Shown here piece by piece: positions 1 through 38,234 of a DNA stretch of 38,962 nucleotides. Below the pieces are notes generated by a model that was not told where the DNA came from, searched no databases, and worked only from the letters and a program-made list of their open reading frames with translations. Position 1 is the first letter of the stretch, and every line of letters starts with the position of its first letter. Source of the DNA: an uncultured Bdellovibrionales bacterium (GTDB lineage Bacteria > Patescibacteriota > Minisyncoccia > Moranbacterales > GWC2-37-73); the NCBI GenBank assembly GCA_964485555.1, contig CAZAJN010000033.1, positions 1 to 38,962 of the forward strand. Direction: 5' to 3'. The translations under genes were made by a program, and so were the position numbers.

Positions 1-519
1 TTCATAGTAGAAAATCTTTCCTCCCTGCATTCCATCCCTTTCAGAAAAATCAACATCCTTGGCCTCGATCCCAACTTCCGCGAATTTTTCTTTCCAAAAG
101 CTCACGGCTTCGTTGTCGCGTGCAATTCCCAGTTCATCATTTCCGCGGAAAACCGTGATGAAAAGTTTTTGAGGATCAAGACCGATTTCCTTGGTCAGAA
201 ATTCAAACATCCAAGCAACCTGCTCTTTCTTGAAATAGTCGCCGAATGACCAATTGCCAAGCATTTCAAAAAAAGTGGTGTGACGATTGTCGCCGACTTC
301 TTCGATGTCCTGAGCGCGGAAACATTTCTGAGAATCCACTAATCTTGTTCCAAGCGGATGCTTCTCTCCGAGCAAATACTGAATCATCGGTTGCATCCCA
401 GATCCCGTGAAAAGTGTGGTTGGATCATTTTCCGGAGTAAGCAAAGCCGAAGGCACGATGGCGTGACCCTTTGATTCAAAAAATTTCAAATATTTTGTTC
501 TCAGTTCGTTTGCCTCCAT
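1..519 (-). CDS. alaS: alanine--tRNA ligase, N-terminal part (gene runs off the left edge)
   Basis: Absent from the ORF track because it is open at the window edge. My translation from the ATG at 519 reads MEANELRTKYLKFFESKGHAIVPSALLTPENDPTTLFTGSGMQ...QKCFRAQDIEEVGDNRHTTFFEMLGNWSFGDYFKKE. This is the AlaRS catalytic-core signature. 519 nt is exactly 173 codons. Confidence 0.9.
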   Translation of the reverse strand, partial: MEANELRTKYLKFFESKGHAIVPSALLTPENDPTTLFTGSGMQPMIQYLLGEKHPLGTRLVDSQKCFRAQDIEEVGDNRHTTFFEMLGNWSFGDYFKKEQVAWMFEFLTKEIGLDPQKLFITVFRGNDELGIARDNEAVSFWKEKFAEVGIEAKDVDFSERDGMQGGKIFYYE

Positions 520-645
520 ATTAGCAGCTTTCAGCTTCTAGCTTTTAGTTTTAAGGTCGAAACCATCAACATTAACAGCAATAAAGCATGAATTATTTAA
601 ATTAGAATATTCCTATTATAATCGGAAATTACCCGAAAGTAAAGC

Positions 646-670
646 AAAAGACGGAGCAAATCCGCCTTTT
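646..670 (-). terminator. putative intrinsic terminator after 690..911
   Basis: AAAAGACGGA-gcaaa-TCCGCCTTTT: a short GC stem (one mismatch) flanked by an A-run and a T-run, about 20 nt past the stop codon. Confidence 0.4.
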
Positions 671-689
671 ACACAAAACAAGAATTTTT

Positions 690-911
690 TTATTTTAACA
701 TTTTTGCAAGCTCTTCCCTTTCTTTTCTGCCAACCAGATACTTATAATCTCTTTCTTTCAAAAACAAATCAATTGCTTGATCGAGGGTGATTTTTCCACT
801 AGCCAGATCTCGGCCGACTTGCCTCATATTGGATTCTCCAATGCTTGATAATTTTTCCTTAAAACCTTTTTGTTCAATAAATTTTTTGACAACCGAAAGA
901 AAATCCTTCAT
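690..911 (-). CDS. hypothetical small protein (73 aa)
   Basis: ORF on the same strand as its neighbours, with compact spacing. I recognise no motif. Confidence 0.5.
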   Translation of the reverse strand: MKDFLSVVKKFIEQKGFKEKLSSIGESNMRQVGRDLASGKITLDQAIDLFLKERDYKYLVGRKEREELAKMLK

Positions 912-928
912 ATTATTTTTGTGAGATA

Positions 929-1189
929 TTATCTTCCTAAATTATTCATCTGATGCTTTAATTTTATCAGTTCATTTTGCATCATGGTGTTTTCTGCTTG
1001 CAATTTCTTCAAAAGATTCTCCTTCAGTGTCAGATCCATCTGAAGTTGCGCTTGATTGTGCTTGATGTCCCTCACGGCGATTTCAGCTTCCAGGCGCGCG
1101 CGCATGTTCTTTTTGACATCGCTGTCCTTGAGCATAATATCCATCTGCATCTTTTTCTTCTGTGACATCAATTCTGGTGATAATTGCAT
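929..1189 (-). CDS. hypothetical coiled-coil protein (86 aa)
   Basis: K/E/Q/L/M-rich heptad-like sequence (…LQMDLTLKENLLKKLQAENTMMQNELIKLKHQ…). No TM segment and no family recognised. Confidence 0.55.
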   Translation of the reverse strand: MQLSPELMSQKKKMQMDIMLKDSDVKKNMRARLEAEIAVRDIKHNQAQLQMDLTLKENLLKKLQAENTMMQNELIKLKHQMNNLGR

Positions 1190-1330
1190 AGCAGCTTTTT
1201 AGGCATTAGTTTCATTAGCTTTTTAGCTTTAGGAATTCCCAAGTGCCAATAAAAACCAATAAAATTAACTTCTAATTTATAATTGAATTTTCTAACTAGC
1301 TGATAGCCTGAGAAGCTAAAAAGCTAGAGA
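1190..1330. repeat. AGCT-rich inverted repeat overlapping the mnmA stop codon
   Basis: TTAGCTTTTTAGCTTTAGG (about 1215-1233) faces CCTGAGAAGCTAAAAAGCTAG (about 1308-1328), an imperfect ~18-bp pairing across a ~75-nt loop. Same TAGCT-type motif as at 521-556, 13512-13602 and 24765-24812. Confidence 0.6.
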
Positions 1331-2448
1331 ATTGTTCCTCCTCCGAGCACTTCATTGTCGTCAGCATAGAAAACCGCTGATTGTCCTGGCGTAATCGCTT
1401 TTTGCGCCTCCATGAATTCAACTTCGCACATAGTCTTTTCTCTTCTCTTGTTTGTTTCTTGTTTTCTTATTATACCACGCACCAAAGGATGACGATACCT
1501 GATCTTCACATTAACTTCCATCGGGAAAGTTGGCTCATCCGCAATCCAATTCTTGAGCTCAACCAGCATGGTTTTCTTGAAAATCTTTTCATCAGTCTCA
1601 TCATTGGTCACGATCAATTGATTATTTTCAAAATCTCTGTCAACCACAAAATATGGGCCGTTTCCACCAATATTGATTCCTTTTCTTTGTCCAATAGTAT
1701 AAATTTCCAAACCATCATGGGTACCGATTTTTTCTCCTTCAGTATTAACAATATCACCAACTGATAATGTCAGATTGCGCTTGATGAATTTGGTCGGCGT
1801 CTTTTCCGGAGTGAAGCAAAGTCCTTGCGAATCTTCCTTGTCAAAAATCGGCAGTTTCAATTTTTCAGCAATCTTTCTGATTTCAGGTTTCTTATATCCG
1901 CCCACTGGAAACATGATCCGAGAAAGTTGTTTTTGTGAAAGAGAATACAAAAAATACGTCTGATCCTTTTCCTCGTCAGATGATGTGTAGAGATGGTATT
2001 TCCCCTGCCTACCGGCAGGCAAGCATCTATCTTTTCTTACCTTGGCATAATGTCCAGTTGCAACAAAATCAGCGTCCATTTCCAACATTTTCTTGTACAA
2101 AAAATTGAATTTGATCCTTTCATTGCAAACCACGCACGGATTTGGAGTCCTTCCAGCTTTGATTTCTTCCAGAAAATAATCCACCACTTCCTTTTTGAAT
2201 TCCTCAGCCGCGTTCACTGTATAAAGCGGAATATCCAAAATCTGAGCGACTTTGCGAGCATCCTGTTGGGATTCCACCGAACAACATTTGTTCTCCCTCA
2301 ACTCATCCTGTCCAGGCTCTTTCCAGAAATGCAAAAAAACTCCCACGACATCATAGCCCTGCTCTTTTAAAAGTGCGGCTGCTACAGAAGAATCAACCCC
2401 CGCGCTCATCCCCACAATCACTCGTTTTTTTGCTGCTTTTTTATTCAT
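1324..2448 (-). CDS. mnmA: tRNA-specific 2-thiouridylase MnmA
   Basis: PP-loop VGMSAGVDSSVAA at the N-terminus, ATGHYA…KDQTYFLY, full-length 374 aa. Confidence 0.93.
   Translation of the reverse strand: MNKKAAKKRVIVGMSAGVDSSVAAALLKEQGYDVVGVFLHFWKEPGQDELRENKCCSVESQQDARKVAQILDIPLYTVNAAEEFKKEVVDYFLEEIKAGRTPNPCVVCNERIKFNFLYKKMLEMDADFVATGHYAKVRKDRCLPAGRQGKYHLYTSSDEEKDQTYFLYSLSQKQLSRIMFPVGGYKKPEIRKIAEKLKLPIFDKEDSQGLCFTPEKTPTKFIKRNLTLSVGDIVNTEGEKIGTHDGLEIYTIGQRKGINIGGNGPYFVVDRDFENNQLIVTNDETDEKIFKKTMLVELKNWIADEPTFPMEVNVKIRYRHPLVRGIIRKQETNKRREKTMCEVEFMEAQKAITPGQSAVFYADDNEVLGGGTIL
2004..2021. repeat. 18-nt GC-rich palindromic element, copy 1 (in-frame inside mnmA)
   Basis: CCTGCCTACCGGCAGGCA is identical to 13273-13290. 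On the coding strand it reads TTG CCT GCC GGT AGG CAG = LPAGRQ. Confidence 0.85.
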
Positions 2449-2457
2449 ATGTACCCC

Positions 2458-2486
2458 ATTCTACCAGCATTTCATTTATCTGTAAA
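2458..2486 (-). promoter_or_regulatory. putative sigma70-type promoter of mnmA, near-leaderless
   Basis: Minus strand reads TTTACA-N17-TAGAAT, followed by 9 nt (ggggtacat) and the ATG at 2448. No SD. Confidence 0.45.
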
Positions 2487-2632
2487 CGTTACACCAGCAA
2501 ACCATTGCACAGAAAAATTTTAAGCAAGAAAATCCCTCGACCACTTTTCGACGACCGCATTAATCTGGTTGCGGTGTAGGAAAACTGTAATGGCAATAAT
2601 AGCAAAGAAAAAAAGGAGGGTTGCATGCTAAA

Positions 2633-2746
2633 TTACACAATAGATGCAATAACCTCATCAAAGCTTGAAACGATCTTGAAAGGATTTCCCTTTTCAAGCC
2701 TATGAAAATCTATCGCTTTGTTCTTTGAATCACTTTCCCAACTCAT
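2633..2746 (-). pseudogene. remnant of a HAD-hydrolase 3' end (paralogous to 5373..5957)
   Basis: 2655-2704 matches 5398-5447 at 46/50 nt. The minus-strand frame gives …IDFHRLEKGNPFKIVSSFDEVIASIV*, compared with …VDFGFHERHRLEKGNPFKIVSRFDEILEVVNT* in the intact gene. Only ~37 codons are open. Confidence 0.45.
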
Positions 2747-2892
2747 CAATAAGAGATTTTTCGCCTTCCATATTTGACACACCAGTATTATAAAACTTAC
2801 CATCAGAAACTTTCAATTTCAGCTGGTGACATTTTGTCACTGATTCATTTCCTTCCTTGTTGAGTCTTTCGTTTTTCGTGCTTTTTAAAACA

Positions 2893-3714
2893 CTAAATTA
2901 TAGCTCTTTTTGCTCGAATTTTACTACCAAAGAATTTACTGCCTAGAACATCAAATTTTTTTGTTAAATCAGTAGAATAAAAGTCACGCACTTTATCCTT
3001 GGTCAATATATTTTCTATTTTTGGATGTCTCAATAAATAGTCTTTCAGCTTTTTTGCCACAATTTTTTCTTCAGAAACGACGTTTATGTCTTTGCCAACA
3101 ATTTTTCTTATTCTTGATTCCAATATTCCATAGTGGGTGCATCCAAGAATAAGAGTATCTATCTTTTTATCAACCAGCGGTTTCAGATATTTTTTCAATA
3201 TAATATCGGTTATCTTTGAATCATGTTCCCCAGCTTCAACAATAGGAACGAGCAGCGGACAGGAATTTTGATATACGCACACATCGCCATCAAGCTTCAG
3301 TAATTCTCTTATGAAAGATTCTAATGAAACAGTGCTCTCGGTTGCCATGACACCAATTTTTTTATTCTTAGTTTTTGAAACAGCAAATTGAGCAGCGGGG
3401 ACTATAACACCCAACACTTTCTTGTTTGGATGATGAACTGGCAGATGTTCTTGCTGAATTCTGCGGAGAGCATCACTTGATGCAGTGTTACAAGCTAGGA
3501 TTATTAGCTCACAATTTTTACTAAACAAAAAATCTACAGCCTGCTTTGTAAATTCATAAATAATTTCCTTTGAACGAGTTCCGTAGGGTACACGAGCGGT
3601 ATCCCCCAAATAAATATAATTATATTCAGGCAATTCCTTTACAATGCCTTTCATAATATTCAATCCTCCAAACCCAGAGTCGAATATTCCGATTGATTTG
3701 TTATCTTTACCCAT
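2893..3714 (-). CDS. murI: glutamate racemase
   Basis: GIFDSGFGGL, ILACNTAS and LGCTHY catalytic-Cys motifs. I moved the start to M13 (3714) so it does not overlap 3722..4000; the ORF-track start at 3750 remains possible. Confidence 0.9.
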   Translation of the reverse strand: MGKDNKSIGIFDSGFGGLNIMKGIVKELPEYNYIYLGDTARVPYGTRSKEIIYEFTKQAVDFLFSKNCELIILACNTASSDALRRIQQEHLPVHHPNKKVLGVIVPAAQFAVSKTKNKKIGVMATESTVSLESFIRELLKLDGDVCVYQNSCPLLVPIVEAGEHDSKITDIILKKYLKPLVDKKIDTLILGCTHYGILESRIRKIVGKDINVVSEEKIVAKKLKDYLLRHPKIENILTKDKVRDFYSTDLTKKFDVLGSKFFGSKIRAKRAII

Positions 3715-3721
3715 AATGCAT

Positions 3722-4000
3722 TTATTTCTTGAATTTTTTCTGAGCCTCAATAGCCTCTCTTATACACTCCTCTGGGTCAAAGCCAAGGTCATCACACCAT
3801 CTTATTGTAGAAAATATGATATTACCAAGTTCTTTTTTGAGTTCATTATCAGTGTGAATATCTTCATCCTTTACAGCATTTCTTTCCCAGCGACAGATAT
3901 CGCCAAATACTTTACCCATTCTAACAATGATTTGCGACAGGCTTAATTTTTGATCACCCCAAATATCACGACTTTGACTCAAAAGATTTTTTATCTCCAT
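3722..4000 (-). CDS. MazG-like nucleotide pyrophosphohydrolase family protein (small, all-helical)
   Basis: 92 aa with paired acidic helices (…ELGNIIFSTIRWCDDLGFDPEECIREAIE…). Family assignment is from memory of MazG-type proteins. Confidence 0.55.
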   Translation of the reverse strand: MEIKNLLSQSRDIWGDQKLSLSQIIVRMGKVFGDICRWERNAVKDEDIHTDNELKKELGNIIFSTIRWCDDLGFDPEECIREAIEAQKKFKK

Positions 4001-4017
4001 ATCATTATGAATAATTA

Positions 4018-4758
4018 TTATTTCAAATTATATCCACCATCTACAAAAATGTTCTGTCCAGTAATACTCTTGGCTTTTTCAGATGCGAGAAATAAAACCA
4101 TTTCTGCAATATCCCTAGACTCGACAAGTTTTCCAAGTGGAACATTTTTCAAAACTTCTTCAAGTTCATCCTTTGGAGCAGTGAGCCAATAGCCAGCCTT
4201 AACTGCGCCAGGCGAAACCGCATTAACTCTGCCGAATGGTGCAAGCAATTTTGCATAGGATTGAGTTATGTTGGCGACTCCTGCTTTTGCAGCCGAGTAC
4301 GATAGAGAATCATATGTTCCTTGAGCAGAAAGTCTTGAAGAAATATTCACAATTACACCAGATTTCTGTTCTTGAAAAAGTTTAGCTGCATATTTTGACA
4401 TATTCATAACAGACACTAAATTTTGCTCAAGACTTTTTGTCCAAATTTCAGCAGTGCCATCCCATTCGTCACCATCAATATACCTTCCGGCATTGTTGAC
4501 CAAAATATCTATTTTCCCAAATTTCTTTTTTGTCATTTCAATAACATTTTTTGACTCCAACTCATCAATCAAGTCTGCTTGAATTGCCATCATTTTACAT
4601 CCCATAGCAGTGAGCTTATATGAAATTTCTTCTGCTCCAGATTGATTTTCTTTGTATGTAATTACGACATTTGCACCTTCTTTTGCAAATGCAAGTGCGG
4701 TTTCAGCCCCGATTCCACTTGATGCACCAGTTATAATGACGACTTTATCCTCAAACAT
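4018..4758 (-). CDS. SDR-family oxidoreductase (FabG-like)
   Basis: TGASSGIG Rossmann motif, NNAG, and the YSAAK catalytic Tyr-x3-Lys. Confidence 0.85.
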   Translation of the reverse strand: MFEDKVVIITGASSGIGAETALAFAKEGANVVITYKENQSGAEEISYKLTAMGCKMMAIQADLIDELESKNVIEMTKKKFGKIDILVNNAGRYIDGDEWDGTAEIWTKSLEQNLVSVMNMSKYAAKLFQEQKSGVIVNISSRLSAQGTYDSLSYSAAKAGVANITQSYAKLLAPFGRVNAVSPGAVKAGYWLTAPKDELEEVLKNVPLGKLVESRDIAEMVLFLASEKAKSITGQNIFVDGGYNLK

Positions 4759-8174: not shown

Positions 8175-8200
8175 ACTAGCGTTGTAGTAAATATTTACTT

Positions 8201-8268
8201 GAATTACGAATCATGAATCATGAATTACGCAAAAGCATTTTTTCTTTATTCACGATTCCAGATTCCAT
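8201..8268. repeat. heptamer-armed inverted repeat (GAATYAY family)
   Basis: GAATTAC GAATCAT GAATCAT GAATTAC (8201-8228) faces ATTCACG ATTCCAG ATTCCAT (8248-8268). Confidence 0.75.
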
Positions 8269-11017: not shown

Positions 11018-13510
11018 CTATCTGCGCATTTTCACTTTTAGATTCTTTTCCAATTCATTTGTGATTGAAATCATAACATCATCAATCTCTTTTCCGGTCA
11101 AGGTTCGCTCGTCAGCGCCCAAAATTACATGGAAAGCCAAGCTCGAGGTGTCATCTGCAAAATCTATCACGTCAAACATGTCCACATCCAAAACAAAATC
11201 GCCGCCCGCTTTTTGAATTACCATCAGAATTTCATCCACCAAAACAGAGCTCTCCACTAACAATGAAATATCCCTGGTCACCACTGGATGTTTTCTGATA
11301 GGAGAAAATTCTCTTTCCGCCTCTGAAACAGCGCCGAGTTTTTCCATATCAAATTCGAACATCGCAACCCTGGAACTGATGTCAAATTCTTCGAGCACAA
11401 AAGGATTTATTTCTCCGAGAAATCCGATACTTTCGCCGGAACCTTGAATTTTAATCTCAGCAGTTCTGCTCTGGTGCCAAAGGGAGGAAGGAGTTTCAAT
11501 GGAACTACCCTCAAACGTATCATAATAATGGTCAGTTATGCCGATCTGTTCAAGCAAGTGGTCAACATAACTCTTCGCTTCAAAGAAAACAGATCCATGC
11601 CTTTTGTCCATCTTTTCTTCTTTGGCACTTTTCTTTTCCATAACTATCGCGCCGGTCAACAAATTCTTTTCTTCAGGCAGCGCTTCGCCATTCACCCAAT
11701 ATACTTTTCCGATTTCAAAAATATTGAATTGCTTGAAATTCTTAAGATTTTCACGAACATTCTTCAAAAGATTTGGAACCAAACTCACTCTCATCAACGC
11801 CTGATCAAGACTCATGGGAGCCTCCAATTCCAGATGTTTCAACAAGCCGAGTTGAGCCGCTTTTGCATCTTTCTCGGAATAGAAAGAATAATTATAAACT
11901 TCATCAAAACCAAGTCCTGTCAAAACATTTTTCGTTTGCCTGACAAAAGCGCGCTGAAGATTGACAGGAGCTGGTTGAACTGAAACCAATGGGGCTACTG
12001 TCGAAATTTTTTCATAACCATAAATCCTGCCTATTTCCTCAATCAAATCCTCCTGGGTTGCAATATCCAGTCGATAAGTTGGAATTTCGCAGTTTATGAC
12101 ATTGCCCATGCCGGAAACTTTAATTCCCAAAAGTGACAGGATTTTTTTGCTTTCCTTTGAAGGAATAGCAATACCCAAAAGCTTATCAGCATATGCCAAA
12201 TCCAGTTTTATGCTCCAAGTCTTTTTCTTTTCCGGATATTCATCCAAACCACCTTCCAGGGCTCCACCAGCAACATGTTCAAGAATTTCTATCACTCGCA
12301 CCATGGCTTTTTCAGCAATATTCGGATCGATTTCTTTTTCAAATCTGAGGGCCGCGTCCGAAGATATTCCCAATCTCATCCTGGTCCGCCTGATGGTGGC
12401 CGGCGCAAAATTGGCTGATTCCAAAACGATATTTTTCGTTTCTTTGGTGACTCCAGTTTCCAATCCTCCCATTATGCCGGCAAGTGCAATTGCTTCTTCA
12501 TTATTAGCAATAACAATATCCTCAGAAGAAAGTTTCTTACTGCTTCCATCTAAAATAGTAATTTCTTCCCCCTCTCTTGCATTGCGAACTATTATTTTTA
12601 CGGTTTGATTATTGATATTTGAATTTTGAGATTTGCTTGGAATTTGTAATTTATCATTTGGAATTTCACTTTTTATCTTATCAAAATCGAAAGCATGGAG
12701 TGGTTGCCCGATTTCCAACATTACGAGATTGGTAGCATCCACAATATTATTGATCGGACGGATGCCGCAAAGTTGAAGTCTGTTCTTGATCCATTGTGGC
12801 GAATCTGAGACCTCCACACCCTCCAAAACTGCTCCGACATAGCGACAGCAAATGTTCTTATCGGCAATTTGCACGGAAAGTTTTTTTGATTTAATTTTGG
12901 AAAGTTTCAGCCCGTCATAGTCATAGTCAATTTCTCGTCCTTCCAGAATTGCAATTTCTCGTCCCATTCCAACATGCGAAAGTGCATCATGTGCGCGATT
13001 AGCCAAAATGTCGATTTCAATCATGGCATCGTCAAGATCAAGCACGTCCTTGATTGGAGTTCCAATTTCCAAATTTCTATCCAAAAGCAGGATTCCTTCA
13101 TGACTGGTCCCTAGTCCAAGTTCGTCTTCCGCACAAAGCATTCCGAAGGATTTTACTCCGCGAATTTCTGCTTCCTTGATCTTGAAGTCGCCAGGAAGCG
13201 TCGTGCCTACTGTTGCAACTGGAACTTTGTCACCGACTGAAATATTTTTAGCGCCACAAACAATTTGCAGAACCTGCCTACCGGCAGGCAGGCCTCCTTC
13301 TTTTATCAATGTCCTGGTCACTTGCAATTTGTCAGCATCCGGATGCTTTTCAATTTCCAAAATTTCGCCAACAACCACGCCATCAAGCTTATTTTCAACT
13401 TTTTCAATACCCTCAACTTCGAAAGCGTGCAACATCAACAGATCCTTAATTTCTTCTGGAGTTTTTTCACTTCCCGATATTTCACTGAGCCAATTGTAAC
13501 TATATTTCAT
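11018..13510 (-). CDS. pheT: phenylalanine--tRNA ligase beta subunit
   Basis: 830 aa. N-terminal tRNA-binding domain HPDADKL…QIVCGAKN…GMLCAEDELGL. Located directly downstream of pheS. Confidence 0.93.
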   Translation of the reverse strand: MKYSYNWLSEISGSEKTPEEIKDLLMLHAFEVEGIEKVENKLDGVVVGEILEIEKHPDADKLQVTRTLIKEGGLPAGRQVLQIVCGAKNISVGDKVPVATVGTTLPGDFKIKEAEIRGVKSFGMLCAEDELGLGTSHEGILLLDRNLEIGTPIKDVLDLDDAMIEIDILANRAHDALSHVGMGREIAILEGREIDYDYDGLKLSKIKSKKLSVQIADKNICCRYVGAVLEGVEVSDSPQWIKNRLQLCGIRPINNIVDATNLVMLEIGQPLHAFDFDKIKSEIPNDKLQIPSKSQNSNINNQTVKIIVRNAREGEEITILDGSSKKLSSEDIVIANNEEAIALAGIMGGLETGVTKETKNIVLESANFAPATIRRTRMRLGISSDAALRFEKEIDPNIAEKAMVRVIEILEHVAGGALEGGLDEYPEKKKTWSIKLDLAYADKLLGIAIPSKESKKILSLLGIKVSGMGNVINCEIPTYRLDIATQEDLIEEIGRIYGYEKISTVAPLVSVQPAPVNLQRAFVRQTKNVLTGLGFDEVYNYSFYSEKDAKAAQLGLLKHLELEAPMSLDQALMRVSLVPNLLKNVRENLKNFKQFNIFEIGKVYWVNGEALPEEKNLLTGAIVMEKKSAKEEKMDKRHGSVFFEAKSYVDHLLEQIGITDHYYDTFEGSSIETPSSLWHQSRTAEIKIQGSGESIGFLGEINPFVLEEFDISSRVAMFEFDMEKLGAVSEAEREFSPIRKHPVVTRDISLLVESSVLVDEILMVIQKAGGDFVLDVDMFDVIDFADDTSSLAFHVILGADERTLTGKEIDDVMISITNELEKNLKVKMRR
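13273..13290. repeat. 18-nt GC-rich palindromic element, copy 2 (in-frame inside pheT)
   Basis: CCTGCCTACCGGCAGGCA, extended to the 20-nt near-palindrome CCTGCCTACCGGCAGGCAGG. On the coding strand it reads CTG CCT GCC GGT AGG CAG = LPAGRQ. Confidence 0.85.
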
Positions 13511-13604: not shown

Positions 13605-14654
13605 TTAAAATTGTTTTGTAAATCTTATATCCCCACTATTGAAAAGTCTGATGTCATTGATCTTGTGACGCATCATCAAGAGCCTTTCGAGTCCAAATCC
13701 CCAGGCAAATCCTTGGTATTTCCCTCTAGGGTATCCGGCGGCTTCAAAAACAGCCTGATTCACCATTCCTGCCCCACCAACTTCAAGCCAGCCAGTGTTT
13801 TTGCATGATGAGCAACCCTTGCCTCCACAAACTGTGCAACTGATGTCAAATTCAAAACTTGGTTCAGTGAATGGAAAGTAACTTGGACGAAGTCTTACTG
13901 TTATTTCTTTTTTAAAAAATCTGGAAAAGAATTGCTGCGCCACATATTTGAAATTTCCCACATTCACATCATCGCCCACCATCAAGGCTTCAAATTGATA
14001 GAATGAATGTTCATGAGTAGCATCAGTCGCCTCATTTCTGAAACATTTGCCAGGCGCAATGATCCTGAACGGCGGAGTATGCGACTGCATAAATCTTATT
14101 TGCACCGGCGATGTGTGAGTTCTGAGAAGAATTCTTTCTTTTTGCGCTCCACGCTCCACGCTTTGCGCTTCACTCTTGAGCCAGAAAGTGTCCCACTTAT
14201 CTCTCGCAGGATGATCTTTTGGAATATTGAGAGCATCAAAATTATAGAATTCGGTTTCCACTTCAGGCCCATCAGCAACCTCAAAACCCATAGACGTGAA
14301 AATGTCTTCCAGTTCATTTTGAATTTTGGTAAGAGGATGAAGATGTCCGCGTTTCATTTTCTTTGCCGGCATGGTCACATCTATTTTTTCAGCGGCAAAG
14401 TCAAAACTTTTTTCTTTGAGCTCTTTTTCTTTCTGAGCAAACGCGCTTTCTATCTCCGCTTTAGCAATATTAGCAAGTTGTCCTACAGTTTTTCTTTCAT
14501 CTCCCTCAAGGTCTTTCAAACCCTTTAGAATATTGGTAAATTCACTTTTACGCCCCAGATATTTAATGCGAAGTTCCTCGGCAACATCAAAAGATTCCGC
14601 CGAACTTATCTCAACCAACGCCTCTGATTTAATTTTTTCAATTTTTTCTTTCAT
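13605..14654 (-). CDS. pheS: phenylalanine--tRNA ligase alpha subunit
   Basis: Class II core including the Cys cluster CTVCGGKGCSSCKNTGWLEVGGAGMV, then FAWGFGLERLLM. Confidence 0.93.
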   Translation of the reverse strand: MKEKIEKIKSEALVEISSAESFDVAEELRIKYLGRKSEFTNILKGLKDLEGDERKTVGQLANIAKAEIESAFAQKEKELKEKSFDFAAEKIDVTMPAKKMKRGHLHPLTKIQNELEDIFTSMGFEVADGPEVETEFYNFDALNIPKDHPARDKWDTFWLKSEAQSVERGAQKERILLRTHTSPVQIRFMQSHTPPFRIIAPGKCFRNEATDATHEHSFYQFEALMVGDDVNVGNFKYVAQQFFSRFFKKEITVRLRPSYFPFTEPSFEFDISCTVCGGKGCSSCKNTGWLEVGGAGMVNQAVFEAAGYPRGKYQGFAWGFGLERLLMMRHKINDIRLFNSGDIRFTKQF

Positions 14655-14662
14655 ATATTTTT

Positions 14663-14736
14663 TGTCATTCCGGACTTGATCCGGAATCTAGAGCACACAT
14701 ATCCATACAAGATCCTGAAACAAGTTCAGGATGACA
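14663..14736. repeat. double-hairpin palindromic element, copy A
   Basis: TGTCAT-TCCGGA-cttga-TCCGGA-ATCTAGAG…GAT-CCTGAA-acaag-TTCAGG-ATGACA. Same architecture as 38081-38151. Confidence 0.8.
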
Positions 14737-14748
14737 CAAGCAAATAAA

Positions 14749-15951
14749 TTATTTTTTAAAAACTATTTTCACAAAACCCATCTTTCCTATTTTCAAAACT
14801 TTCCCATCCAATTCTTTTGTCACCACAAATTGTGGATCAAGAAATTTTTCATCACCAATCGAAACCCCGCCTTGTTCAATCTTCCTTCGCGCATCTCCCA
14901 TACTGCTTGCATTACCTGATTTGAAAACCAATTCAATCAATTTCATCTCACCTTCAACTTTGAATTCTGCAATATCAGTCGGTATTTCTTTTTTTGAAAA
15001 AGTGTTGATGAAATATTCCCTTGCTTCCCTTGCCGCATGCTCTCCATGATAAATCGTTACTATTTCACCAGCCAAGCGAAGTTTTGCGTCACGTGGTTCC
15101 GCTTTCATTATTTCTTTTATTTCTTCAAGTGATAAGAGGGTGCAATTAACTAATAATATCTCAATCATTTCATCTGATTGTGACATGATCTGACCAAATT
15201 TATCATTCGCGCCAGTATCTAGAAATATACCTGTTCCTTTGCTTTTAGACATTAATTCTCCCGTCTTTGGATTCTCCATCAGCGTAACCGCCACGACAAA
15301 CTTATTCTTGTCTTTTAACTTTCTTAGCAATGTTCTTCCAGTTAAAGCATTGAAAATTTGATCAGTTCCACACACCTCCACATCTACATCCATAGCGACA
15401 CTGTCATATCCTTGCATAAGCGGATAAAGAAATTCGTGCAGATGGATCGGCTTACCCTCACCAATTCTTTTTTCAAACATATCCCTTTCTAACATCTGTT
15501 GGACAGTAAGATTTGATGCAAGTTTAATCACATCTTCAAAATTAAGTTTAGAAAGCCAATCATGATTATATCTTATCAAAGGTGGGTTCTCCGTGCTATT
15601 AAAATCCATCAATGGTGCAATCATCGCTTTCCATTTTTCAACATTACTCAGAACTTCTTCGCGCGACAATTGTTTACGAGCAGAAGATTCCCCTGTGGGA
15701 TCACCAATTCTAGCTGTGAAATCCCCAAATAGGACAATAACTTCATGCCCTAGCATCCTAAATTTTTCTAAAAGCATGAAATTTTTCGCATGACTAAGGT
15801 GAAGTGTTGGCGCTGTTGCATCAAAACCGATGTAAAATCTTAGCTTATCTCCACTCAATAATACCCTCTTAAATTCTTCCTTAGTAGGCAAAATTTCAAC
15901 TATAGTTCCCCGGTTTAAAATTTCATCTATCTGTTTTTCCAAGTCATTCAT
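14749..15951 (-). CDS. tyrS: tyrosine--tRNA ligase
   Basis: HIGH-type PTLHLSHA, KMSKS-type LMSKSKG, and a C-terminal S4-like domain (ARRKIEQGGVSI). Confidence 0.93.
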   Translation of the reverse strand: MNDLEKQIDEILNRGTIVEILPTKEEFKRVLLSGDKLRFYIGFDATAPTLHLSHAKNFMLLEKFRMLGHEVIVLFGDFTARIGDPTGESSARKQLSREEVLSNVEKWKAMIAPLMDFNSTENPPLIRYNHDWLSKLNFEDVIKLASNLTVQQMLERDMFEKRIGEGKPIHLHEFLYPLMQGYDSVAMDVDVEVCGTDQIFNALTGRTLLRKLKDKNKFVVAVTLMENPKTGELMSKSKGTGIFLDTGANDKFGQIMSQSDEMIEILLVNCTLLSLEEIKEIMKAEPRDAKLRLAGEIVTIYHGEHAAREAREYFINTFSKKEIPTDIAEFKVEGEMKLIELVFKSGNASSMGDARRKIEQGGVSIGDEKFLDPQFVVTKELDGKVLKIGKMGFVKIVFKK

Positions 15952-33353: not shown

Positions 33354-34754
33354 CTACTGATTACTGTTTCTCAGTTTTTCTGCTACGCGCCAAACATCTC
33401 CAGCTCCCATAGTTATCAGCACATCATATTCTCCAGATTTTTCTTTCAAATATTCTACTGCTTCATCAATTGTTTCTATATATTCAGCCTTATCCCTATT
33501 ATATTTATTTATAAGCTTTACTAAGTCTTCCGACGTAGCCCCTCCTCCGGTTTCCCGAGCGCTTCCATATGTTCCGATCACAACAACTTTTTCCGTATCA
33601 TCAAAACTTTGCGCAAAGTCCTCCAAAAGGGCTTTGGTTCTGGAAAAAGTGTGGGGATGAAAAACTGTCCAAATCCTTTTTCCTTCATAGCGAGTCTTTG
33701 CACCGTTCAAAGTAGGTTTAATCTCGTCAGGATGATGAGCGTAGTCATCAATCAAGACAGCCTCGCCAAATTTTCCGATAAGTTCAAATCGGCGAGAAGT
33801 GCCCTTAGCCTGTGACAAGGATTTTTTTATCTTTTCCAAATCGAGTCCGATCGCATGCGAAAGCGCTATCACAGCAGTTGAATTCAAAACATTATGCTTT
33901 CCAGACAGCGGCGTTTCAAAAATACCCAAACTCTCATCTTCAAAAAAAACTTCAAATGATTGAAAATTTTTCTTATCTTCTTCCATGATTCGTGATTCAT
34001 GATTCATGATTCTGTACATATTATCCTCTCCAAATCCATAGGTCAGCACTTGGCAGTTGGCATCTTTTGCAACCTCAACCGTATCAGAGCTGTCACCCCA
34101 AACAACCAGAAAACCTGTCTTGGGAATTTTGGCGACAAAATCTTTGAAAACTTGCTTGTATGATTGAAAGTCCGGGAAAAAATCAGGATGATCATAGTCA
34201 ACACTGGTCAAGATCACCGACCAAGGTTGATAGAATCTCAATTTATTTTGATATTCATCCGATTCCGCAATAAAATATTCCCCCTGACCGGAAAGTGCGC
34301 TCCCTTGCCAAGCAATGACCTGGGAACCGACAATTGCACTAGGATCTTTTCCGGCGGATGCAAAAGCCTCAGCCAACATAGCAGTCGTGGTTGTTTTTCC
34401 ATGTGTTCCGCAAACTGCAATTCCTAGCTTTTCCTGAAAGAGTTTGCCCAGCATTTCAGGATAACTCAACATAGGAATTCCAGTCTTCTTGGCAGCCGCC
34501 ATTTCCTGATTGTTCTCTTCATTATAGGCTGTGGAAAAAATGATCAGATCTGAATCTCTGGGCACATTTTCAGCTGAAAATTTTTCATAAAATGGAATTT
34601 GCAGACGCTTCAAAATTTCATCTGTATAAAAAACTTCTTCTGTGTCAGATCCACTCACCTCAATTCCTCGACTTTTCAAAATCTCAGCCACAGCAGTCAT
34701 GCCAGCCCCCTTAATTCCAATGCAATAAATTTTCTTCAAATCTTTTATTTCCAT
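33354..34754 (-). CDS. murC: UDP-N-acetylmuramate--L-alanine ligase
   Basis: IGIKGAGMTAVAEIL and the CGTHGKTTTTAML P-loop. Sits in a dcw-type context next to murG. Confidence 0.92.
   Translation of the reverse strand: MEIKDLKKIYCIGIKGAGMTAVAEILKSRGIEVSGSDTEEVFYTDEILKRLQIPFYEKFSAENVPRDSDLIIFSTAYNEENNQEMAAAKKTGIPMLSYPEMLGKLFQEKLGIAVCGTHGKTTTTAMLAEAFASAGKDPSAIVGSQVIAWQGSALSGQGEYFIAESDEYQNKLRFYQPWSVILTSVDYDHPDFFPDFQSYKQVFKDFVAKIPKTGFLVVWGDSSDTVEVAKDANCQVLTYGFGEDNMYRIMNHESRIMEEDKKNFQSFEVFFEDESLGIFETPLSGKHNVLNSTAVIALSHAIGLDLEKIKKSLSQAKGTSRRFELIGKFGEAVLIDDYAHHPDEIKPTLNGAKTRYEGKRIWTVFHPHTFSRTKALLEDFAQSFDDTEKVVVIGTYGSARETGGGATSEDLVKLINKYNRDKAEYIETIDEAVEYLKEKSGEYDVLITMGAGDVWRVAEKLRNSNQ
33985..34012. 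repeat. tandem heptamer array inside murC coding sequence
   Basis: ATGATTC GTGATTC ATGATTC ATGATTC, which is the reverse complement of the intergenic GAATCAT units. It is read in-frame as …YRIMNHESRIMEE…. Confidence 0.8.
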
Positions 34755-35892: not shown

Positions 35893-35968
35893 GAATTATG
35901 AATTATGAATTATGAATTATGAAAATGCAAATCATACTTAATTCATGATTCATGCTTCATAATTCATC
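35893..35968. repeat. heptamer-armed inverted repeat between ftsW and murG
   Basis: GAATTAT x4 (35893-35920) plus GAAAATG, a 13-nt spacer, then ATTCATG ATTCATG CTTCATA ATTCATC (35941-35968). Confidence 0.8.
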
Positions 35969-36019
35969 TATATAGAATAAGCATACCAACAAATCTGCAA
36001 TAAATCCAGCCAGTTGAAG

Positions 36020-37267: not shown

Positions 37268-37933
37268 TTATTTTTTGCTTTTCGCCTTACCTTTTCTCCA
37301 CTTCTCAATCTCACCATGATGTCCGCTTAAAAGAACCTCGGGAACCTTCCAACCTTCGAATTCTTCCGGCTTGGAATATTGCGGGTATTCCAAATATCCT
37401 TCTTCACTGTGAGATTCAATTACCGCACTTTGATCATTGCCCAAAACTCCAGGCAGAAGGCGCGTGATACTGTCCACGACAACCATGGCTGGAATTTCAC
37501 CTCCAGTCAGCACGAAATCCCCGATTGAGATTTCCTCATCAACAAGGTTTTCAGCCACTCTTTCATCCACACCTTCATATCGTCCGCATATCATTATGAT
37601 TCGATCATATTCAGCAAGTCTGTGCGCATCGGCTTGCGTGAATCTTTTACCTTTGGCAGAAAAAAGAATGGTGCGAGCAGATGACTGATCACTAATGACC
37701 AATGACTTCTTTATTTCTTTCAAGCAATTGTAAATAGGCTCAACTCGCATCACCATCCCGGCGCCTCCACCATACGGAGTGTCGTCAATGTTGTGATGCT
37801 TGTCTGCAGTATAATCTCTCAAGTTATGCGTCTCAATTTCCACAGCTCCGGCATTTTTAGCACGTTTAATAATAGACTCATTAAAATAGCTGTCGAAAAT
37901 TTCCGGGAAAATTGTGAGGATGTCGAATTTCAT
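37268..37933 (-). CDS. trmD: tRNA (guanine37-N1)-methyltransferase
   Basis: FDILTIFPEIF, YGGGAGMVM, and LTGGEIPAMVVVDSITRLLPGVLG (SPOUT knot). Confidence 0.93.
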   Translation of the reverse strand: MKFDILTIFPEIFDSYFNESIIKRAKNAGAVEIETHNLRDYTADKHHNIDDTPYGGGAGMVMRVEPIYNCLKEIKKSLVISDQSSARTILFSAKGKRFTQADAHRLAEYDRIIMICGRYEGVDERVAENLVDEEISIGDFVLTGGEIPAMVVVDSITRLLPGVLGNDQSAVIESHSEEGYLEYPQYSKPEEFEGWKVPEVLLSGHHGEIEKWRKGKAKSKK

Positions 37934-38080
37934 AAACCTAACGAAATTACAAATTTAATACAAATCTACAAATTATTCAGTATCCCGCAGAAGCCAACTA
38001 ATAATGTATTTTTACTAATAACTGATTTAATTTAAATGCCATTTTTATCTTTAAATAAGCCTGAACTTGCAACTCACTTT

Positions 38081-38151
38081 TGTCATCCTGAATTTATTTC
38101 AGGATCTAGAGTTTCGGCTTATATAGATGCTGAAACAAGTTCAGCATGACA
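38081..38151. repeat. double-hairpin palindromic element, copy B
   Basis: TGTCAT-CCTGAA-tttat-TTCAGG-ATCTAGAG…GAT-GCTGAA-acaag-TTCAGC-ATGACA. Confidence 0.8.
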
Positions 38152-38234
38152 TTGATATCAAATGACCTAATAATATATACATTTTAACATGATTTAATGA
38201 AATAAAAAAGCTCGAACTATATCCAGAAATATCA

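Follow-up and report, generated by a model that had tools for sequence, protein, structure and literature searches.

Each of the two palindromic elements in the window, the whole 38,962-nt stretch of DNA analysed here, is a doublet of small hairpin units that belongs to a described family of hairpin repeats and is not a new kind of element; its AT-rich arms and candidate-phyla host extend that family. We think it likely that each doublet is a gene-less head-to-head heterodimer of the CGTC/TGTC-tagged REP superfamily, best read as a non-autonomous, REPIN-like form of the cassettes that carry ssn, the gene of a small GIY-YIG nuclease. A first-pass annotation had stated that a match of the units to a described repeat family would leave the elements real but not novel. 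This is the case, since the units match repeats already described as CGTC/TGTC-tagged REPs and as NTS/SRM.

Results

Four hairpin units in two inverted pairs

A frame scan of the window that required a perfect 6-bp stem found four units and no more, each of the form (T)GTC-AT-N6-loop5-N6'-AT-C; together they make up two inverted (convergent) pairs (Table 1). T precedes GTC in 4/4 units, and all four stems are perfectly paired. In 500 dinucleotide shuffles of the window, paired units were expected at a mean of 0.004 with a maximum of 1, and a looser pattern lacking the pairing requirement gave 13 matches in the window against 8.2 expected, which is not above chance. That the four units are real, and far from chance, is confirmed. 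Reading of the stretches together with the scan bore out what the first-pass annotation had described, namely that both copies lie at the positions it gave and share a TGTCAT...ATGACA frame, that each is an inverted pair of GTCAT-hairpin-ATC units with perfect stems, and that the inner stretches from ATCTAGAG to GAT, which measure 17 nt in copy A and 14 nt in copy B, fall within 14-17 nt.

Table 1. Features of the two doublets and their surroundings (positions in the window)
Feature	Position	Strand	Description
Copy A	14663..14736		Head-to-head heterodimer (tags outside) of two TGTC-tagged hairpin units
Unit A1 core	14664-14688	+	GTCAT-TCCGGA-CTTGA-TCCGGA-ATC
Unit A1 with tag and tail	14663..14691	+	T-GTC, AT-TCCGGA-CTTGA-TCCGGA-AT, C-TAG; DNA fold -7.6 kcal/mol, z -4.0
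Copy A variable spacer	14692..14710		ATC-to-GAT 22 nt here, 10 nt in L050, 47 nt in L053
Unit A2 core	14711-14735	-	GTCAT-CCTGAA-CTTGT-TTCAGG-ATC
Unit A2 with tag and tail	14708..14736	-	T-GTC, AT-CCTGAA-CTTGT-TTCAGG-AT, C-TTG; fold -6.1 kcal/mol
Copy B	38081..38151		Head-to-head heterodimer in divergent spacer between trmD and Mur-ligase-like gene
Unit B1 core	38082-38106	+	GTCAT-CCTGAA-TTTAT-TTCAGG-ATC
Unit B1 with tag and tail	38081..38109	+	T-GTC, AT-CCTGAA-TTTAT-TTCAGG-AT, C-TAG
Unit B2 core	38126-38150	-	GTCAT-GCTGAA-CTTGT-TTCAGC-ATC
Unit B2 with tag and tail	38123..38151	-	T-GTC, AT-GCTGAA-CTTGT-TTCAGC-AT, C-TAT
Possible remnant half-unit	38060..38069	+	CCTGAACTTG, 5' arm and loop without tag or 3' arm; 11 nt left of copy B; 9-nt match; weak evidence
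Promoter-like block upstream of trmD	38177..38213	-	GCTTTTTTATTTCA...CATG-TTAAAAT; conserved in L099, L100, L102, L103, L106
PheS	13605-14654	-	Flanking gene (Pfam)
TyrS	14749-15951	-	Flanking gene (Pfam)
TrmD	37268-37933	-	Flanking gene (Pfam)
Mur-ligase-middle-domain protein	38270->	+	Pfam; earlier called 'folC'

Folded as single-stranded DNA, each unit forms an 8-bp stem (AT plus the 6 bp) and a 5-nt loop and leaves GTC and C unpaired. In copy A the two hairpins form independently of each other, whereas copy B has the alternative of a single long hairpin, because its arms differ at only one base. Apart from the possible half-unit beside copy B, no further or degenerate copies were found in the window. 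Unit B1 and a solo unit of another Moranbacteria MAG (L008) are 100% identical over 35 nt. Two other kinds of repeated sequence were observed in the window: AT-rich heptamer blocks (GAATTAT/GAATCAT runs and their complements), direct and inverted, in several spacers (8192-8232, 33979-34012 and 35893-35974), and a GC-rich palindrome, CCTGCCTACCGGCAGGCA, inside mnmA and pheT (2004-2035 and 13273-13304).

Genomic setting of the two copies

Copy A lies where it had been placed, between tyrS and pheS and about 9 nt from the pheS start. The spacer from the tyrS stop to the pheS start is 94 nt long, 74 of which are copy A, and 8-9 nt are left before the pheS ATG; pheT was confirmed by Pfam too. As to copy B, Pfam supports its trmD neighbour and corrects the other, taken for folC, to a Mur-ligase-middle-domain protein. 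A terminator scan found no terminator-like sites, in agreement with the earlier view that the hairpins are not terminators.

Judging from its sequence and conservation, the block upstream of trmD would act as the trmD promoter. Copy B lies about 30 nt downstream of the -10 box of this block, and in L099 the block is followed directly by trmD; copy B of the window would therefore sit in the trmD 5' leader. On the other side of copy B, its ATGACA end is followed by N17 and AATAAT (38146-38174, + strand), a promoter-like arrangement that faces the Mur-ligase-like gene. An outward promoter starting from this ATGACA end was considered and discarded, such matches being no commoner than in shuffles.

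The units belong to the CGTC/TGTC-tagged REPs and resemble NTS/SRM

CGTC-tagged REPs have an unpaired CGTC tag, often replaced by TGTC and also found as CCTC, a stem of 8-9 bp that begins with AT, a loop of 4-5 nt and a 3-nt tail, and they include Neisseria dRS3, equated with CGTC-1, and Rickettsia RPE-4 and RPE-6 (Di Nocera, De Gregorio, Rocco, BMC Genomics 2013, PMC3733652). They form mostly head-to-head dimers, with heterodimers predominating in families 2 and 3, and were reported mainly from Alphaproteobacteria, no partner gene being known then (PMC3733652). The TGTC variant of the tag, the 8-bp stem made of AT plus 6 bp and the 5-nt loop are present in 4/4 window units, and copies A and B are both head-to-head heterodimers whose units have a 3-nt tail. 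Spacers of 1-100 bp, and in-frame intragenic copies in some genomes, are likewise common to both. The tails differ, being CTA, CTT, CTA and CTA in the window whereas the consensus is CCA. CGTC-2 has an 8-bp stem and a 5-nt loop, and it is by stem and loop length only that the window units would be placed there.

The Neisseria NTS has the form CGTC-AT-TCCCGCG-MAV-GCGGGA-AT-C-YRG, and it is bound by SsnA, a 94-aa GIY-YIG protein, as single-stranded DNA only and on one strand only (Chenal et al., Nat Commun 2025, PMC11893778). Binding depends above all on the C that follows the palindrome, and cutting, which takes place a few bases upstream, on the three bases that precede it (PMC11893778). All four window units have GTC directly 5' and C directly 3' of a palindrome that starts with AT, and their tails are YRG-like, with ATCTAG (fitting ATCYRG) in three of the four. 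NTS/SRM repeats and the units studied here also share a similar hairpin size, many gene-less copies in spacers, spread across phyla, and the flanking, in convergent orientation, of a ~95-aa single-domain GIY-YIG gene. They differ in that the window stems are AT-rich (CCTGAA, GCTGAA, TCCGGA) with 5-nt loops (CTTGT, CTTGA, TTTAT), and in that the window host is a Patescibacteria (Moranbacteria) MAG, with no ssn within the 39-kb window. The published SRM pattern, HGTCWYN(0-2)YYVSBRHN(0-5)WNVSBRGN(0-2)RNCYNB, matches none of the four units because their stems are too AT-rich; its flanking part, HGTCWY...RNCYNB, matches all four.

Arm types recur letter for letter across phyla

An exact search for GTCATCCTGAA-N5-TTCAGGATCTAGAG (25 bases specified), with one genome per species, returned 49 loci from more than 10 phyla. 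They include Moranbacteria, Gottesman-, Roizman-, Sacchari- and Parcubacteria, Alpha- and Gammaproteobacteria, Bacteroidota, MAGs of Rhodothermaceae and Balneolaceae, Thermodesulfobacteriota and Sulfurimonas, and the same exact pattern was present in 53 further stretches of viral contigs. With such recurrence, and with the fit to the features of the superfamily, the idea of a REP/REPIN-like member of a dispersed family is upheld. In these loci the CCTGAA unit is found alone, in tandem or tail-to-tail, but its commonest arrangement is head-to-head with a second unit that has another stem; the pairings seen in the window, CCTGAA+TCCGGA and CCTGAA+GCTGAA, rank among the commonest heterodimers. 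Of the 525 units of the fetched loci, 318 have T before GTCAT and 171 have C, and CCAG (180) and CTAG (68) were counted among the tails.

CCTGAA, GCTGAA and TCCGGA are thus discrete arm types, not products of local compensatory drift. The different but perfectly paired stems had been taken as covariation indicating selection on the hairpin rather than on the sequence. However, the arm types recur letter for letter, and changing the sequence of a hairpin that was itself kept abolished the activity of SsnA, the one enzyme studied (PMC11893778). The sequence is therefore important too, not the structure alone.

In four viral contigs from IMG/VR (L278, L275, L293 and L267) the units all point in the same direction (15/15, 11/11, 9/9 and 4/4) and mix several stems, namely CCTGAA, TCCCGA with 9-nt loops, TCCTGC and TCTGAA. 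Such a bias points to a possible connection with a single-stranded stage or with the direction of transcription. No ssn gene was found in the 53 unit-carrying viral stretches, and the fetched stretches of these four contigs are likewise without it.

The inverted TGTCAT...ATGACA ends had also been compared with the terminal repeats of MITEs. The ends are indeed inverted, but a classical MITE, with these ends as terminal inverted repeats moved by a DDE transposase, is very unlikely: neither copy A nor copy B shows a target-site duplication in its flanks, the spacing of units varies from 2 to 117 nt, and solo, tail-to-tail and tandem arrangements are all common. Moreover, the dimer census (83 head-to-head, 50 head-to-tail, 38 tail-to-tail) contains 67 head-to-head pairs with different arms and 16 with the same arm. 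What can be said for a MITE, besides the inverted ends, is that a unit may ride inside a real one. In MAG GFS_5816 (JAYTWQ01, in the L001-L049 set) a CCTGAA unit lies in the middle of a ~130-nt element bounded by terminal inverted repeats of its own (TATACTCAATCT...AAGTGTGAAAAGTATA); there are dozens of copies of this element, and contigs end where the assembly breaks at them.

Units with the same frame flank a small GIY-YIG nuclease gene

Which protein might act on such units? A motif scan and tblastn identified small GIY-YIG genes (PF01541, 91-105 aa) in 3 of the first 49 loci, each flanked as unit(+)...gene...unit(-). Pfam assigns these genes to PF01541 only, the partner class of SRM being of the cd10448 type. 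In one of the three, from Sulfurimonas (L037), a CCTGAA-CTTGA unit that differs by one loop base from unit A2 lies directly downstream of ssn.

We then defined units by the frame GTCAT-stem-loop-stem-ATC only, in 80 further ssn-like loci from many phyla that had been retrieved by similarity to the three proteins alone. Of these loci, 58 have units upstream of ssn, 63 have them downstream and 50 have them on either side. Within 250 nt of ssn their density is 4.3/kb (170 in 39 kb) versus 0.17/kb beyond (78 in 468 kb), a 26-fold difference, and they are oriented mostly + upstream (63:20) and - downstream (65:22). The ssn cassettes carry units in the same convergent orientation as the window does; therefore the window doublets have the layout of the cassette without its gene. 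The arms beside ssn are mostly GC-rich (TCCCGC), and the loop CTTGA recurs with many stems. Because an ssn gene is present in only 3 of the ~100 fetched stretches that contain a CCTGAA unit, the link of the CCTGAA arm to ssn rests mostly on family resemblance.

A REP-associated transposase-like protein had been suggested as a candidate for binding the units. The gene flanked by units of this kind is instead the small GIY-YIG nuclease, not a REP-associated tyrosine transposase, and mobilization of the doublets as REPINs by a RAYT, that is, an IS200/IS605-like tyrosine transposase, is scarcely credible. The layout would suit it, being that of an inverted REP doublet, as REPINs reportedly are in their classic form. 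The REPIN-RAYT systems of Pseudomonas and E. coli, which are said to combine a GTAG tag with an HUH tyrosine transposase, share with the present units the inverted doublets of short palindromes, a partner gene that is present once and has the same repeats on either side of it, and a hairpin of single-stranded DNA as the proposed substrate. They differ in tag, GTAG as against (T/C)GTC, TGTC in the window, and in enzyme, and there is no sequence similarity. Pfam detected no Y1 transposase domain in any window ORF of at least 90 aa. Finally, according to published work, CGTC REPs are never found beside RAYT genes (PMC3733652).

The window itself gave no match to the three Ssn proteins by tblastn, and Pfam found no nuclease or transposase among all 30 of its ORFs of at least 90 aa, almost all of which are housekeeping or secretion genes, with a few matching nothing. 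The doublets could accordingly be orphan relics, members of the family in a genome without Ssn that persist as inert leftovers of past invasions or of imported DNA tolerated by spacers. The absence of ssn from 39 kb, the low density of units in Moranbacteria loci (4 units in 121 kb of trmD loci) and the decayed half-unit that may adjoin copy B are what this explanation would predict, and we regard it as a real if lesser possibility. Against it, all four stems are perfect, which suggests either a recent origin or purifying selection, two relatives with the same pheS doublet encode ssn (see below), and the metagenome that contains the window also holds low-depth ssn-like contigs, not assignable to an organism.

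Patchy distribution in Moranbacteria

Searches with PheS and TrmD group the window with Moranbacteria; for PheS, an exact-protein match was sought as a source of strain variants and none is on record. The closest relative by PheS, MAG CAZSTB01 (86%, labelled Bdellovibrionales), has the same CCTGAA/TCCGGA doublet before pheS (L050). Another of its contigs (L047) carries an ssn cassette together with a doublet whose arm stems, CCTGAA and GCTGAA, are those of copy B. In LCKI01 (PheS 72%) the pheS doublet is present as well (L053), and there is an ssn gene (L179). At the pheS site of CAYLWX01 (PheS 69%) the arms are of NTS type (TCCCGCG / CCCCGC; L058), and its ssn lies between units of these two arm types (L185). 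In L060 (PheS 62%) TCCCGCG is combined with TCCCGA-TCAAG-TCGGGA; the latter aligns with the TCCGGA unit one compensatory pair apart (TCCGGA/TCCGGA versus TCCCGA/TCGGGA), a genuine compensatory change at an orthologous site. L051 (PheS 83%) and several other relatives are without the doublet.

On the PheS tree the carriers do not form one clade, and the sister lineages L054, L059 and L061 are without the doublet. Doublets in the pheS spacer are hence patchy, occurring in four or five non-sister Moranbacteria lineages with differing arms and spacers. L099, whose TrmD is 84% identical, has no counterpart of copy B in its syntenic spacer. That the doublets are mobile we infer solely from this patchy distribution. 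The pheS spacer may be a hot spot, or may hold an old insertion that has been repeatedly remodelled.

Two further observations concern these genomes. In LCKI01 (Parcubacteria group GW2011_GWC1_45_14) a head-to-head CCTGAA/TCCGGA doublet, the arm pair of copy A, lies in frame inside trmD (L103:2230-2297), inserting ~18 residues (..CHPELDSGSQLAGKEIPDQ..) where the protein has a poorly conserved loop. The label 'uncultured Bdellovibrionales' given to several MAGs (CAZSTB01, CAYLWX01 and others; L047, L050, L058, L100, L185) is probably wrong, because they encode a PheS or TrmD 69-86% identical to that of the window and group with Moranbacteria in the PheS tree.

The position of the doublets at pheS raises the question of whether they act as leader RNA, a transcribed double hairpin controlling in cis the stability, processing or translation of the pheST (and trmD) mRNA. 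The distance to the pheS start is 9-13 nt in the window, L050, L053 and L060 and 33 nt in L058, all 7 units present in 65 kb of Moranbacteria pheS loci fall within the tyrS-pheS spacer, and the L053 doublet lies downstream of a promoter-like TTGACT-N17-TAGAAT. In the same spacer of L051 (Moranbacteria UBA12142; 2440-2500) there is an unrelated 17-bp palindrome (CACCCTGTTAAAT...ATTTAACAGGGT) 14 nt before the pheS start, which also speaks for a structure at this place. We nevertheless find a leader function improbable as the explanation of the doublets: besides their patchiness on the PheS tree and the differences in arms and spacers between lineages, these units turn up in hundreds of unrelated places, including inside genes and in viral contigs, copy B is without a counterpart in relatives, and Rfam 15 gives 0 matches at gathering score across the whole window.

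Gene-less doublets in groundwater metagenomes

Three groundwater metagenome runs from 2012 contain the window; they are present as contigs, which break at repeats. The contigs of the window organism (depth ~7) break at the units, over which the summed contig depth ranges from 200 to 4000. The arm type of unit A2 is the most abundant (3300-4100 versus ~7 for the flanks). Such depths imply that the arms are repeated across many members of the community. No empty-site or excision alleles were seen in the three runs, whose contigs break at the repeats. The ssn cassette of L047 forms a contig of its own, 473 nt long and bounded by a unit at each end, with 100% identity. In more than 10 distinct contigs its two arm types are joined at a distance of 0-28 nt; therefore, gene-less doublets with the cassette's own arms exist in the abundant relative.

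Discussion

Reading the doublets as the gene-less form of the ssn cassette leads to a model in which most steps are taken over from relatives. When DNA becomes single-stranded, during replication, uptake or transfer, a unit would fold into its 8-bp stem with 5-nt loop, with GTC predicted to stay unpaired 5' of the stem and C 3' of it. By analogy with what has been shown for relatives, a small single-domain GIY-YIG nuclease (Ssn) would bind this hairpin on one strand only and nick a few bases upstream of the tag. Since the two units of a doublet lie on opposite strands, each strand would offer one site. Both copies in the window would have landed in transcribed 5' leaders, those of pheS and trmD, and any effect on the mRNA would be secondary.

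A bolder version of the same model makes the doublets true non-autonomous mobile elements, copied through single-stranded DNA by Ssn acting in trans, spread between phyla, possibly by phage-like DNA, landing preferentially 5' of certain start codons and perhaps co-opted as a leader structure of pheST. We consider this doubtful. Nonetheless, the near-identical arms found across more than 10 phyla and in viral contigs bear on whether Ssn cassettes and doublets are a mobile system, and the recurrence of doublets before pheS in non-sister lineages bears on the question of mobility likewise.

For the family as a whole, the present elements add one host, Moranbacteria, and an AT-rich arm type to repeats that were described in 2013 and whose partner enzyme was described in 2025, and otherwise little. 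In this respect, the published SRM pattern misses AT-rich arms, which means that surveys using it undercount the family in low-GC and in candidate-phyla genomes.
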